64,000 bases of DNA, from positions 1 to 64,000 of the forward strand of contig CBDUQR010000008.1 of the NCBI GenBank assembly GCA_965369655.1, given 5' to 3'. Shown piece after piece: positions 2,563 to 17,434 of this stretch; the stretch's first letter is position 1; every line of letters begins with the position of its first letter. The notes under the pieces were generated by a model that saw only the letters and a list, made by a program, of their open reading frames with translations, searched no databases and was not told the DNA's origin. Both the position numbers and the translations under genes were made by a program. The stretch comes from an uncultured bacterium (GTDB lineage Bacteria > Zixibacteria > MSB-5A5 > JAABVY01 > JAHJOQ01).

Positions 2563-2802
2563 CAAAAACTCCTTTCAACTCTACTATTGATCCGACGAGA
2601 GAGTACCGCTTAATGTTGTCTATCAGTGATGCTCCTCGTTGGACTCTTAGGCTGAATGCCTCACGCTGCGGTTTTTCGCAAAATGTGAATTGGTTCACAA
2701 ATTCCTCCGCAACGTTTCCGTTAATTTGAGTACAATTTTATACTCTTTCAATGAGAAAGTCAACCATTATTTGGGTAGTGGGTCAGTTTGAAACTCGACT
2801 AC

Positions 2803-3000
2803 TCAGCTTTTTGGGCCAAGGGGATTCGCATGGCTCAACTCTGATGTTAGATCGGTCCAGATTGTCTTTACATATCCTATCTTTTCGTCATTGCTCATGT
2901 TTCCAAGTTTGGGGTCTGTGTATACAATCTTCCTGTTCGTATCAGAATCGTAATACGTGACGGCCTCGGCACCTGAAACCTTAGGATTCCAACTCATCAT
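2803..3000 (-). CDS. Small hypothetical passenger protein (65 aa)
   Basis: RBS GGGAGG lies just before the ATG; stop is just inside the left TIR; no recognisable domain. Confidence 0.5.
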   Translation of the reverse strand: MMSWNPKVSGAEAVTYYDSDTNRKIVYTDPKLGNMSNDEKIGYVKTIWTDLTSELSHANPLGPKS

Positions 3001-3091
3001 AACCTCCCTAATTCACTCTGATATTTTGGTTGCAATAAGAAAAACATGCGTCTTAAGAAATGTACACTTGGGGCGTGCGAGTGGCAAGCAT

Positions 3092-3937
3092 TTATTGTAG
3101 CTTCGCCTCTCTTTCTTCCAACAATTTCACAATATCCTCAAGATTCCAGAGCTTGTCAGTAACACCAGCTTCCATCGCGGGCGTGACTTTCAACGTTCGA
3201 TGTATCCGAACGAAGTTGTAGTACATGAAGTGGAGGGCTACGGCATGCATGAGGTTCTCGATCTTCTTGCTGAAAGCGTTCGTCAATCTGGTAAACCGGC
3301 GCATGCTCATTCTCATTGTCAGATTCTGTCTTTCAACGTGCGATGTTGAAACCTGATCTTTTTTCGGCTTGCCGGTTACTCTATGTTGGCGACTGCCGAT
3401 ACACTTGGCTGGACTGTGCCGCGTTTCCGCTTCTGGTGCCGATCCGTACAACTTGACCAACATGGCATAGTCGATGTCAGCACCGAAAGCTTGATCTACG
3501 GCTTCGAGATAAGGTCTGTGACCGTCTGTGGTAAGCTGGACTCTGTTAGTAAGGCGACTTGCAACATCGTGCATGAATGCTTTAGCCCATTCCGAATTAC
3601 GAAGACCGACTAACCATGTAACAACAAGTTTAGTATCAGGATCAATAGCTACCCACGTCCAAACGTCGCCAACACCAAACTGATCTTTCATATCATCAGA
3701 GACGTTCTTCTGTTTGGCATAGCAGAATGACCAGATTTCGTCACACTGTATGCGCCTGCAATTGAGGTTGCGAAGAACGCGATCCTGATACTCTGCGCAA
3801 ACTTCGCCTACATCAGCCAAGAGCTTGACTACGGTGTTTTTAGCAACTCCAGTCATGCGGACTGTTGAGCGGATCGAGTTTCCCTCAACCAATGCCGCAA
3901 AGACCTGAACTCTTTTTTCTGTTGTTAGCTTATTCAT
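3092..3937 (-). CDS. IS1-family DDE transposase
   Basis: N-terminal HTH (EGNSIRSTVRMTGVAKNTV); QCDEIWSF, LTTDG and VERQNLTMR...RRFTR motifs. Confidence 0.9.
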   Translation of the reverse strand: MNKLTTEKRVQVFAALVEGNSIRSTVRMTGVAKNTVVKLLADVGEVCAEYQDRVLRNLNCRRIQCDEIWSFCYAKQKNVSDDMKDQFGVGDVWTWVAIDPDTKLVVTWLVGLRNSEWAKAFMHDVASRLTNRVQLTTDGHRPYLEAVDQAFGADIDYAMLVKLYGSAPEAETRHSPAKCIGSRQHRVTGKPKKDQVSTSHVERQNLTMRMSMRRFTRLTNAFSKKIENLMHAVALHFMYYNFVRIHRTLKVTPAMEAGVTDKLWNLEDIVKLLEEREAKLQ

Positions 3938-3945
3938 ACTGACCT

Positions 3946-3974
3946 AATATACGTAAGCGGTCACGCATTGTCAA
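3946..3974 (-). promoter_or_regulatory. Sigma70 promoter of the transposase (leaderless-like)
   Basis: TTGACA-17nt-TATATT, 8 nt before the ATG; no clear SD. Confidence 0.65.
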
Positions 3975-4037
3975 GAGAAAAATGCTTGAGCGGTCAAGAA
4001 AATTATCTTGGCAATCTGCCGATAATAGTGTATATAA

Positions 4038-4109
4038 TGGTGGAGCCGTCGGGAATCGAACCCGATCCGCGCGAGTCCAAAGTCCGCTGGAGTCACCCTG
4101 ACCGGCCCC
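4038..4109 (-). ncRNA. tRNA-like RNA (Ala-type acceptor, degenerate D and anticodon arms, encoded CCA)
   Basis: GGGGCCG/CGGCTCC acceptor with G3-U70, discriminator A, CCA; T arm TCGGG-TTCGATT-CCCGA; loop CTTTGGA. Confidence 0.65.
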
Positions 4110-4115
4110 ATCTTC

Positions 4116-4153
4116 GGCTCAGACAAGCGTACGTGGCCTGTCTGAGCCTTTTT
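4116..4153 (+). terminator. Terminator-like hairpin inside the IS
   Basis: GGCTCAGACA/TGTCTGAGCC stem followed by TTTTT on the plus strand. Confidence 0.55.
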
Positions 4154-4319
4154 CTATATCTCTATACACCAGAAGGGTCGATTTCCCTTCTGAGAATGGG
4201 TAATGGTGGCGGACGAATCCGCCTAAGAAGTAATAATATAATTTTACTTGACAAGAACCTTGCAGATATGCTTCCTTGCATTCGTAGCCTCCATGACGTT
4301 AGTGGAGTTATTGATTATT

Positions 4320-4348
4320 AGCCGGTGTTCGCTGCACCGGCTTTTCTT
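4320..4348. terminator. Hairpin just downstream of the HARE-HTH gene
   Basis: AGCCGGTG/CACCGGCT stem; T-tract on the plus strand. Confidence 0.5.
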
Positions 4349-4790
4349 ATTTCTTCAACCTATACGTCCTCGGTCCTACTTTTTCAAATACATCAGGCTC
4401 ACGCTGAATACTGGACTCAACGGAATTCTTAGGGCTGTCTGTCCTGAACTCGTATCCACCAGCTTTGAGTCCCGCAACAACTTCATTCAGATGTAGAGGT
4501 CTTTGCGCTATAGACAATACGATCTTGCAAGCCTCGACAATCGTCTTATCCTTGAGCCGACCATCCAGAGATACGTCGCGCTTTTTGGGGAACATTTGAT
4601 TCTGCAACATATGATGAATTCCGCTGAAGTGGCCTTTCATCTTGTGAATCTCTTGTTTTTCCTTCTCTAACTGATTGATTTCAGTTTCAATCTCACGTAA
4701 TCTCTGGTCATACCCCTTCAATCTCTGTTCGAGGTCTTCAAAGTCTATCGCGTCCAGCGCGTCATAAAGGCTATCATATGGGTCTGTCAT
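4347..4790 (-). CDS. Coiled-coil plus winged-HTH (HARE-HTH-like) passenger protein
   Basis: RBS AGGAGG; heptad-like N-terminal half; C-terminal TIVEACKIVL...PLHLNEVV...SPKNSVES...FEKVGPRTYRL. Promoter TTGACG-17-TATTGT at 4814-4842. Confidence 0.75.
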   Translation of the reverse strand: MTDPYDSLYDALDAIDFEDLEQRLKGYDQRLREIETEINQLEKEKQEIHKMKGHFSGIHHMLQNQMFPKKRDVSLDGRLKDKTIVEACKIVLSIAQRPLHLNEVVAGLKAGGYEFRTDSPKNSVESSIQREPDVFEKVGPRTYRLKK

Positions 4791-4885
4791 AAGTCCTCCT
4801 GTCAATCAAAGGTACAATAACAGATTGTTGAATTCACGTCAAGTAAAATGTGTAACAATAATTGGGCTGTTGTACAATAGTGGAA

Positions 4886-5167
4886 TTAGTCGTCTTCGGA
4901 TTGGTCGGCTTTCTTCCTCCAACGCGCATTAGCCGCCCTACGTGCGGCTTCTGAGCGTTCTTTAGGGGTCATTCTTGCAGCTCGTGCCTTACCGCCTTTC
5001 AACCCTCCGCGTCGTCCGAGAGCTACGGCAGCAGGGTCTTTACCTGAATTTTCTGGTGGGGATTCTGGTTCTTCTGGCGGGGATTCGTCAGTTGCCTGTT
5101 CGACAATACTGTGAGCCAGTTCGTTAATATCTGGCCGCTTTTTCTTCTTGCTTGATCGGTCACGCAT
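4886..5167 (-). CDS. Small basic KGG-motif protein (putative nucleic-acid binding)
   Basis: KDPAAVALGRRGGLKGGKARAARMTPKERSEAARRAANARW. Start placed at the ATG at 5167, 6 nt after a TTGACA-16-TACCTT promoter. Confidence 0.8.
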   Translation of the reverse strand: MRDRSSKKKKRPDINELAHSIVEQATDESPPEEPESPPENSGKDPAAVALGRRGGLKGGKARAARMTPKERSEAARRAANARWRKKADQSEDD

Positions 5168-5470
5168 ACCATCAAGGTACAAGTCCCGATCAGAATGTCA
5201 AGAAGAATCGCTGTCAGGAAAATTCAAACTGACCCACTACCATTATTTGACATTAGCTGTCCACCGGCGGTGAGAGGAAACATACATCTTCGTCCTCTGC
5301 GGCGTTTCCGCGAATAGATCATATTCCAGCTTGACTTACATTCCGTGATCGCTGCACGATTCCGTGACAACTATCTTCTTTCAGTTGGCGCGATTCTCAT
5401 CACAGATACGACAGTCACCTCTTGTGAATTACTGGCGAATCATTATCTTTGCGCCGATGGATTTGATATC

Positions 5471-13111: not shown

Positions 13112-13145
13112 CCCCGCCCGCGCAAGGATAAGGTTCAGGTCAGGT

Positions 13146-13308
13146 CCGGCAGGTCTCCTGGCTCACGGGTCATCCTACTCGCAGGCGCCTTCCCACCCGA
13201 GGGCAGTGGCATTCGATATTACGTGCCTGCTTTCGTCGCCGATTACAGTAGCGGGGCTGCGGTGGCATCTCACCACCTTCCCTATTAAGCGCTCTGCACC
13301 GAACCGAT
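13146..13308 (-). promoter_or_regulatory. Cobalamin riboswitch
   Basis: Minus strand reads AATAGGGAAGGTGGTG...GCCCCGCTACTGTAA...GCCACTG...GGGAAGG...GAGCCAGGAGACCTGCC (B12 box). Confidence 0.93.
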
Positions 13309-13349
13309 TTCAGAAAGCAATAAAACTGGGGATCAGTCGAGTGTCAACA

Positions 13350-17313: not shown

Positions 17314-17385
17314 GCACCGGTAATTCAGTGGTAGAATGCAAGCTTCCCAAGCTTGACGTCGCGGGTTCGAGTCCCGTCCGGTGCT
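17314..17385 (+). tRNA. tRNA-Gly(CCC)
   Basis: GCACCGG/CCGGTGC acceptor; CAAGC-TTCCCAA-GCTTG anticodon arm; GGTTCGAGTCC T arm; U73; CCA not encoded. Confidence 0.93.
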
Positions 17386-17434
17386 CTTTTCATTATTCAG
17401 ATGACTGGAAGTAATCTGAGGCTATAATATTGTC

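Follow-up and report, generated by a model that had tools for sequence, protein, structure and literature searches.

What does an insertion sequence (IS) gain from carrying a 72-nt sequence shaped like a tRNA? The question is raised by positions 4038-4109 (minus strand) of contig CBDUQR010000008.1, from an uncultured, Zixibacteria-like marine-sediment bacterium, of which the first 64,000 nucleotides (hereafter the window) were analyzed. An earlier note, made from the letters of this stretch, had described here a chimeric tRNA-like RNA, alanine-type at its acceptor end and glutamine-type in its anticodon, and had listed as possible roles a decoy, a processing signal for RNase P and a regulator resembling a small transfer-messenger RNA (tmRNA). 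As judged from comparison with related transposons, in which it is kept, the sequence is a working, conserved gene for a tRNA-shaped RNA, and therefore a working part of the element.

The letters read by the first analysis were reproduced exactly. The acceptor stem GGGGCCG/CGGCTCC with G3:U70, A73, the encoded CCA and the T arm UCGGG-UUCGAUU-CCCGA were all confirmed, as was the shrunken D hairpin GUCA-GGG-UGAC, at which all four pairs show compensatory changes among 22 homologues. For the central arm the earlier description held in part: an anticodon-like stem with a 7-nt loop is present, but part of the supposed variable loop GCGGA takes part in pairing, with GGA (42-44) opposite UCC (19-21). 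The window RNA thus has a central arm made of a 3+5-bp extended helix, which is capped by the 7-nt loop and joined to the T arm without a variable loop. The same anatomy characterizes the family, with a 7/5 acceptor/T configuration: the 7-bp acceptor stem is followed directly, without the usual two-base linker, by a D hairpin of 3-4 bp with a loop of 2-5 nt (mostly 3 nt, usually containing GG). In the central arm that follows, a single unpaired base separates an outer helix of 3 bp from an inner one of 5 bp, which carries a 7-nt loop, and one or two bases stay unpaired on the returning strand; a 5-bp T stem with a UUCRANN loop and base 73 complete the molecule, with no variable loop in between. 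Since the central arm offers about as many stacked layers (9-10) as the D stem and anticodon stem of a normal tRNA together, an L shape of normal tRNA size would be plausible.

Standard searches passed over the gene. ARAGORN, run on the whole window, found a tRNA-Gly(CCC) at 17314-17386 as the sole tRNA, and Rfam at gathering thresholds reported only this tRNA-Gly and a cobalamin riboswitch in the window, the tRNA family RF00005 not being matched at the RNA. Among 21 copies examined, ARAGORN called one (L144), as tRNA-Gln. The single-sequence fold of the window RNA was unremarkable (z = -1.4), and the case for an RNA therefore rests on comparison with relatives. The gene occurs once in the host genome; positions 3998-4148, or more, were identical in three DNA runs of one study, so that the tRNA-like stretch is not an assembly artefact.

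Look-alike RNAs were first met upstream of transposase homologues in relatives. A covariance model (R1) was built from two gap-free copies and refined with six copies (R2); a MAFFT alignment of four copies misplaced the stems, and model-guided alignments were used instead. Over 151 genomes of the phylum, R2 gave 19 matches of 71-73 nt with 50-82 bits, in 18 genomes of seven families. All other matches were tRNA-sized (76 nt), leaving a score gap between the homologues (at least 50.2 bits) and true tRNAs (at most 43.6 bits). Viral contigs and metagenomes were scanned for the pattern GGGTTTGCACC-N(8-14)-GTTCRA and the matches judged by R2, which accepted IMG/VR contig L207 as the only family member among 60 viral-contig loci and contig L260 as the only one among 80 of 118 metagenome stretches; the remaining loci were chance matches or true tRNAs. 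With these two and a copy from G009, the set comprised 22 distinct homologues (alignment A9).

Stem covariation in homologous elements, the check that the earlier note had called for, was found in this set. Standard pairs occupied 95.2% of the 526 cells of A9 as against 67.1% in shuffles, none of 500 of which equalled the real value, and 36-54% in controls with slid partners; these pairing counts are somewhat inflated by the fitting of the alignments to the model structure, yet the raw rows themselves display clear complementary changes in both the acceptor stem and the T stem. Both sides had changed at 20 of 24 pairs, distributed over the acceptor stem (5/7), D hairpin (4/4), outer helix (3/3), inner helix (4/5) and T stem (4/5). 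The complement paired less well than the sense strand (87.3%), owing to 52 G-U cells. A decayed tRNA gene or attachment-site remnant, hitch-hiking in the IS without function, would agree with the silence of ARAGORN and the single copy in the genome. Maintenance of the pairs through double changes in 22 sequences, beside transposases that have diverged to 44-74% identity with that of the window, contradicts such decay, as do the presence of both the 5' and the 3' half and the location of the RNA gene 1.1 kb and 1.3 kb inward from the IS ends. Covariation across the homologues rules out a decayed host tRNA or attachment-site fragment, and a functionless relic is therefore regarded as having next to no likelihood.

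Comparison with related elements exposed a shared terminal motif, GGTAGTGGGTCAGTTTGA, by which the borders of the IS were drawn. In the window it forms a perfect 18-bp inverted repeat, with exactly two matches versus 0.01 expected by chance, and it also ends related elements in L034, L035, L052 and L144. An 8-bp target duplication, ATTATTTG, flanks both ends. In the same-genus genome G001, the citrate synthase gene and mutS2 are adjacent, ATTATTTG occurs once and the element is absent, representing an empty site. Ends, duplication and empty site together define an element of 2,468 bp with the RNA gene inside it, as had been claimed; by these sequence features it is a recent insertion. DNA contigs of runs X1 and X2 bridge both junctions. 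On the minus strand, the gene order is a 98-amino-acid (98-aa) basic protein, a 152-aa coiled-coil/winged-helix protein, the RNA, the transposase and a 65-aa open reading frame (ORF). The transposase scored below cut-off with the NCBIfam IS1 model NF033558 (57.9 bits; cut-off 100) and with Pfam DDE_Tnp_IS1, PF03400 (23.5 bits; cut-off 24.1), and just below it with DDE_Tnp_IS240 (25.9 bits). Its residues D66, D138 and E202 were invariant in eight relatives, and a scan of genome contigs detected at least 596 relatives.

Further copies of the IS end motif were seen on host contigs C53, C60, C35 and C46. At the contig end C60:12802-13056, the motif is fused to the last third of the transposase gene in a truncated relative, and one DNA contig contains a similar joint, from 2792 to 3210. 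Deletion derivatives of the IS therefore circulate in the same community.

A G3:U70 pair combined with A73 constitutes the identity recognized by alanyl-tRNA synthetase (AlaRS). Across the homologues, G3:U70 was present in 19/22, A73 and G2:C71 in all 22, G1:C72 in 20/22 and G4:C69 in 18/22, while acceptor positions 5-7 each showed four or five pair types; the window copy has G3:U70, A73 and G2:C71. G3:C70 was observed in two copies (L136 and L148), which form the branch most distant by transposase identity (approximately 44-49% to the window). The alanine identity described in the earlier note was thus borne out, the identity set remaining fixed while the rest of the acceptor stem covaries. 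Fixation of a wobble pair amid neighbours that turn over is the pattern expected under selection for AlaRS recognition. An AlaRS gene was located on host contig C3 (C3:55516-57132), and we infer from the conserved identity set that the RNA would be charged with alanine by this enzyme. CCA is encoded in three of the 22 homologues; in the other 19 a CCA-adding enzyme would be needed.

The anticodon-like loop departs from a normal decoding loop. Its consensus is N-U-U-U-R-S-A, with GUUUGCA in 10 copies, CUUUACA in three and other versions once each (CUUUGGA in the window). In the usual register the triplet would be UUG (14), UUA (6), UUU (1) or UGA (1). U33 occurs in 21/22, A38 in 22/22 and G32 in 13/22 sequences; at position 37, 17/22 have C and 5/22, among them the window copy, have G, but none has A. 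Positions 32 and 37 can pair in 11 of 19 rows tested (G-C in nine, C-G in two). The absence of A37 makes ordinary decoding doubtful. The loop hexamer UUUGCA (11/22) equals U32-A37 of the host tRNA-Ala(UGC) loop UUUGCAA, shifted by one place, and the acceptor stem of the window RNA is identical to that of host tRNA-Ala(GGC). Judged from these matches, the RNA most probably descended from tRNA-Ala by a one-base slip of the stem register. The proposal of a chimera with a glutamine anticodon was consequently abandoned: the loop letters are those of a shifted alanine loop, position 37 is never A and no codon link to the IS genes was seen. Two further possibilities were tried and rejected. Shifting the loop register, so that A37 is restored and the triplet becomes UGC (Ala), UAC (Val) or UGG (Pro), leaves only two of five stem pairs (counted by hand). 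A private codon-anticodon link was sought in nine transposase genes, in which the counts of CAA/CAG, AAA/AAG, TCA and stop codons were unrelated to the loop triplet; the window transposase gene has three CAA and eight CAG codons, compared with 2,909 and 11,018 in the long ORFs of the genome.

In 8 of 21 loci (L052:2846-2920, L053:547-621, L033, L134, L137, L138, L143 and L144), a second irregular tRNA gene begins 4-15 nt beyond the 3' end of the RNA; it is absent from the window copy. Hairpin, RNA and second tRNA together span about 190 nt. The second tRNAs scored 41.9-58.5 bits, above the Rfam tRNA threshold, but had odd loops or mismatched bodies. An 8-nt anticodon loop with UCCC was found in L052 and L134, a 6-nt loop in L138, and class-II bodies with a long variable arm in L143 (anticodon UUA) and L137 (UGC); further forms were Arg-CCG, Thr-CGU and a 71-nt Ser-UGA. 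Some of them look like frameshift or nonsense suppressors.

Such neighbours are among the reasons to consider that the RNA itself is a mis-decoding or suppressor tRNA which, charged with alanine, would read CAA (via UUG), UAA (via UUA) or other codons and benefit the element through a changed proteome or through read-through. A central arm with the stacked layers of a normal D stem plus anticodon stem, and U33 and A38 in a 7-nt loop, are consistent with this idea, as is the likeness to allo-tRNAs and to irregular tRNAs near transposon and toxin-antitoxin genes. In the text of Mukai et al. (PMC5389517), irregular tRNA polycistrons are described near toxin-antitoxin and transposon-related genes, and irregular tRNAs changed to CUA translated amber codons in E. 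coli. However, the predominant pyrimidine at position 37 and the frequent G32 are ill suited to decoding, and 32-37 pairing would close the loop to a tetraloop. Moreover, the loop triplet differs between close relatives, the nine transposase genes show neither enrichment of the matching codon nor an in-frame stop, and the host already has a tRNA-Gln(UUG). A decoding role is, on balance, considered unlikely.

In E-value mode the best Rfam match of the RNA was tmRNA (RF00023; 40.8 bits, threshold 47), with the two ends of the model (1-374) matched and 23 nt where the model has 322; the mascRNA-menRNA family (RF01684) followed at 34.2 bits (threshold 42.5). The host assembly (G000, 99.5% complete) encodes SmpB at C38:13673-14098, while a canonical tmRNA gene was not found in it. 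Together these observations would suit a reduced tmRNA, consisting of the tRNA-like domain only, that replaces an absent host tmRNA or modulates SmpB-dependent ribosome rescue. Yet ordinary tRNA-Ala genes of relatives reach 36-44 bits on RF00023, and the RNA lacks a tag reading frame and pseudoknots and has a paired D hairpin in place of the unpaired D-loop analogue of the Rfam tmRNA consensus. The tmRNA-like GAC...GGA motif of the window copy corresponds to the D-stem strand plus the outer helix and is not conserved across the 22 homologues, and four other carriers (G039, G016, G003 and G009) also hold a full-length tmRNA (167-194 bits). The suggestion of a small tmRNA-like regulator did not survive these comparisons, and a reduced tmRNA is rated as very improbable. 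A tmRNA above threshold was found in 33 of the 41 genomes of the relatives search, often at contig ends. Because the RNA differs in sequence from the tmRNA ends of the genus, arrived with the IS and coexists with tmRNA elsewhere, the missing tmRNA of G000 is most simply, and probably, an assembly gap.

Two observations concern tmRNA genes of this group. The 19 nt at C1:8976-8994 match the genus tmRNA exactly in its T arm and are perhaps an integration scar. In L021:1840-1920 (G002, same family), the T-arm/acceptor part of a tmRNA gene recurs in degenerate form about 50 nt beyond its 3' end, which resembles the edge of an island integrated into ssrA.

The place of the RNA gene proved as constant as its structure. 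Transposase context was assessed in 19 loci, of which nine (the window included) have a full-length gene, four have fragments and six have none within 1.5 kb. In all 13 loci with transposase remains, the RNA lies upstream on the same strand, at 30-218 nt. In three of these (L135, L140 and L142), the transposase start codon follows the RNA by just 30-32 nt, too little for a promoter between them, so that RNA and transposase must be co-transcribed. In the window, the RNA stands directly upstream of a promoter-like site of the transposase gene, in agreement with the earlier note; this site is 64 nt past the RNA, in a region conserved in L033. Strong near-consensus promoters precede hairpin and RNA in L135, L140 and L260.

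The hairpin is a further constant feature. Reading of folds by eye placed one of 8-13 bp at 6-20 nt upstream of the RNA in 19/19 loci; the weakest examples are those of L052, with 5 bp, and of L141, which folds more loosely. The sequence varies between loci, and most of the hairpins are preceded by an A-rich tract and are therefore terminator-shaped on the opposite strand. In the window, the hairpins at 4320-4342 and 4116-4148 are each followed by a T-run on the plus strand only, against the direction of all IS genes; from this arrangement, they might stop antisense transcription from the transposase side.

Upstream regions were also examined for 79 transposase relatives from other phyla (the best 80 of at least 596, at 59-73% identity, minus one with too little upstream sequence). 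Five of them, from Nitrospira, delta- and alphaproteobacterial metagenome-assembled genomes, each have on the transposase strand, 100-290 nt ahead of the transposase gene, a tRNA-shaped gene of unrelated type (L067:2829-2903, L077:2749-2822, L085:2625-2718, L093:2776-2870 and L120:2783-2859), examples being 74-77-nt 'tRNA-Ser' (GCU/ACU, without a long arm) and a 95-nt 'tRNA-Ala'.

Constant place and strand, gaps without room for a promoter and other tRNA shapes in the same place together indicate a function that depends on position and shape. Of the roles listed in the earlier note, a processing signal for RNase P would fit the fixed position best. Tentatively, with confidence a little short of even, we therefore favour a tRNA-Ala-derived, alanine-accepting tRNA mimic that is a conserved part of one IS1-like branch and punctuates the transposon transcript; that the mimic is maintained as part of the IS, as previously proposed, agrees with the covarying homologues beside related transposases. 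According to this punctuation model, RNase P would cut the 5' end of the RNA out of a longer transcript, RNase Z or exonucleases would form its 3' end, CCA would be added where unencoded and AlaRS would charge the product. Excision would separate the cargo genes from the transposase gene. Transposase mRNA that arises by read-through, from the cargo genes or from outside the element, would thereby be severed and begin at a processed 5' end; how much transposase is made would then depend on tRNA-processing enzymes together with the promoter of the gene itself. Once released, the alanyl-tRNA-like RNA could additionally act in trans.

Several observations weigh against punctuation, besides the inflated pairing counts mentioned above. 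A pure processing signal needs no G3:U70, which leaves the best-conserved feature unexplained. Intact RNA without a transposase gene within 1.5 kb occurs in L134, L139, L141, L143, L145 and L146, and in these six loci the RNA has thus been kept without its supposed target gene. In the window, a near-consensus promoter of the transposase gene itself lies between this gene and the RNA. Only 3 of 21 loci yielded a promoter-like site ahead of the hairpin, versus a shuffle mean of 2.3. Finally, a tRNA-shaped gene lies upstream in just 7 of the 79 relatives (L052, L053, L067, L077, L085, L093 and L120), so that the transposon family, as sampled by the best 80 of at least 596, can transpose without one. 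The dispensable G3:U70, the transposase-less loci and the separate promoter lead to the view that the charged RNA may have a second, trans-acting role, for which conservation of G3:U70 argues in particular because a processing signal does not need it.

A role in trans has also been considered on its own, as a decoy or sponge: the RNA would be an alanine-type look-alike, carried as cargo with a winged-helix partner, that titrates a factor recognizing tRNA-Ala or the ends of aminoacyl-tRNAs. Candidate targets include a tRNA-targeting toxin, a defence nuclease, an acetyltransferase or pyrophosphokinase toxin and a quality-control factor. A coiled-coil/winged-helix gene is located directly upstream of the RNA in 13/21 loci, the combination of winged-helix gene, hairpin and RNA is still present in 6/19 loci that have no transposase gene, and acceptor identity and loop sequence are both conserved though decoding looks disabled. 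Free cargo, however, would have no need to keep a constant place and strand with respect to the transposase gene. Consistent linkage of the RNA to a toxin or nuclease gene was not observed, no IS protein obtained a meaningful PADLOC score, and the single gene copy would face competition from four tRNA-Ala genes of the host. A decoy therefore seems unlikely.

The AlaRS identity set and the tRNA-Ala(UGC) loop letters UUUGCA, the two features that a system adding alanine independently of mRNA reads, are kept in an RNA that looks unfit for reading codons, a combination that leads to a further reading. The host encodes an RqcH-type NFACT_N protein (C46:9775-10818, 175.7 bits, in a 627-aa frame) and, by this gene, probably has alanine-tailing ribosome quality control. 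As described in PMC8373112, RqcH selects tRNA-Ala through its anticodon stem-loop and unwinds it. That the transposon uses the RNA in trans, as an alanine-charged look-alike of tRNA-Ala, on the ribosome-rescue machinery of the host is quite improbable; if true, the mobile element would have a new route into protein quality control, by supplying its own donor, or a competitor, to alanine tailing or to another factor specific for tRNA-Ala.

Features of the insertion sequence and its RNA gene in the window
Feature	Position	Strand	Remarks
Complete IS1-like insertion sequence, 2,468 bp	2774-5241	-	RNA gene and four ORFs
Target-site duplication ATTATTTG, left copy	2766-2773	.	Single copy in G001
Right terminal inverted repeat GGTAGTGGGTCAGTTTGA	2774-2791	+	
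ORF, 65 aa	2803-3000	-	Between transposase gene and right IS end
IS1-like DDE transposase, 281 aa	3092-3937	-	
Promoter-like site of transposase gene	3946-3974	-	TTGACA-17-TATATT; 11/12 matches
tRNA-like RNA gene, 72 nt	4038-4109	-	Sequence, models R1 and R2, 22 covarying homologues
Acceptor 5' strand	4109-4103	-	
D mini-hairpin	4102-4092	-	
Extended central arm	4091-4066	-	7-nt loop CUUUGGA at 4082-4076
T arm	4065-4049	-	
Acceptor 3' strand	4048-4042	-	
A73	4041	-	
Encoded CCA	4040-4038	-	
A-tract and 13-bp hairpin	4116-4153	-	6 nt before RNA 5' end; on plus strand, hairpin then TTTTT
Coiled-coil protein with C-terminal winged helix (HARE-HTH-like), 152 aa	4347-4805	-	Pfam HARE-HTH 23.9 bits (cut-off 25.9)
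Small basic protein, 98 aa	4886-5182	-	ORF; GG(L)KGGKARA...ERSEAARRAA..ARW motif
Left terminal inverted repeat GGTAGTGGGTCAGTTTGA	5224-5241	-	
Target-site duplication ATTATTTG, right copy	5242-5249	.	

The proteins encoded beside the RNA gave few family assignments. For the 152-aa protein, an AlphaFold model (pLDDT 82.9) showed a long helix (22-71) and a winged helix (89-150); its best, weak fold match was the N-domain of RNA polymerase delta, the HARE-HTH prototype, and Foldseek gave no match at E ≤ 0.001. Proteins of this kind (121-169 aa across the loci) show only 11-22% identity among the counterparts, and hhalign against 10 positional counterparts gave a probability of 65% (E = 5.8e-5). 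In these 10 no Pfam family exceeded its cut-off, and PADLOC, PHROGs and NCBIfam returned only coiled-coil noise for the coiled-coil neighbour proteins. The 98-aa basic protein has counterparts in L052, L033 and L137 and matched PHROG 2384, a family of unknown function (E = 3.6e-6), while no Pfam or NCBIfam family was found for it. For the 65-aa ORF, searches of Pfam, NCBIfam, PADLOC and PHROGs yielded no family. In two transposase-less loci, L139 (1702-2052) and L143 (2037-2381), the next gene downstream encodes a small protein (114-116 aa) that appeared GIY-YIG-like by eye only. Elsewhere in the window, at 13131-13318 on the minus strand, the cobalamin riboswitch is full-length (108.3 bits).

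An insertion sequence is usually viewed as a transposase gene between two ends. Here, one branch keeps in addition a structured, probably alanine-accepting RNA gene, and other branches of a widespread IS1-like family carry other odd tRNAs in the same place. Under the punctuation model, the RNA would represent a bacterial counterpart of organellar and MALAT1 tRNA-type processing signals, and the transposon would have a novel means of protecting its transposase from transcription that enters from outside; under a trans-acting model, the RNA would amount to a tRNA mimic that is mobile and has a target in the cell. This case contributes the element boundaries, the 22-member alignment, the fixed alanine identity and the non-decoder loop. 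The element also provides a concrete genomic home for part of the 'irregular tRNAs' of soil and sediment metagenomes, and covariance model R2 separates the tRNA-like RNAs of the IS from true tRNAs.

Irregular tRNAs and allo-tRNAs of soil bacteria are non-canonical, some with G3:U70, their anticodons do not fit their identity, and some are thought not to serve translation, according to the texts of PMC5389517 and PMC7609411. As defined in the text of PMC5389517, allo-tRNAs have 8/4 or 9/3 acceptor/T stems and a long variable arm; with its 7/5 configuration and no variable arm, the present RNA falls outside that definition. An IS1-type element with ends and target duplication that carries irregular tRNAs is not described in that text, and no description of a tRNA-like gene in IS1 elements was found in the literature; the supplementary figures of PMC5389517 may show related, overlapping sequences.

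With bacterial tRNA-Ala and other AlaRS substrates, the RNA shares the G1-G2-G3-G4/C-U-C-C acceptor, G3:U70, A73, a UUCGAUU-type T loop, GG in the D loop and the hexamer UUUGCA of host tRNA-Ala(UGC). It differs in its length of 72 nt, in the missing 8-9 linker, in a D arm reduced to a 3-4-bp hairpin with a 3-nt loop, in a 3-bp helix that extends the anticodon-like stem in place of the variable loop, and in a loop register shifted by one, hence C37. The tRNA-like domain of tmRNA (RF00023) likewise has G3:U70, A73, CCA and a T arm, whereas the IS RNA has no mRNA-like domain or pseudoknots and does have a paired D hairpin.

Eukaryotic mascRNA/MALAT1 and MEN-beta (RF01684) resemble it in being tRNA-shaped modules embedded in longer transcripts, with a D arm of reduced size and an anticodon arm that does not decode. 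When RNase P and RNase Z cut them out, the ends of the neighbouring RNAs are set, and by analogy the same mode may apply to the IS RNA. Plant mitochondrial t-elements are tRNA-like processing signals as well. Both systems are eukaryotic or organellar, the RF01684 score stays below its threshold, and we know of no aminoacylation of mascRNA, whereas the IS RNA keeps the alanine identity set.

The IS1 family is characterized by terminal inverted repeats and target duplications of 8-9 bp, a feature that the 18-bp perfect repeats and 8-bp duplication of the window element fit. A parallel is offered by IS1-family elements with passenger genes ('transporter IS'), to which belongs the ISMhu11-type subgroup of ISfinder, a name under which no paper was found. 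Such elements share the DDE transposase with hits to IS1 models, ends starting with GGT and the 8-bp duplication, and they too have additional genes placed between left end and transposase gene. From the IS1 family the present element is set apart by its below-cut-off scores, a single transposase ORF without a frameshift and a conserved gene for a structured RNA.

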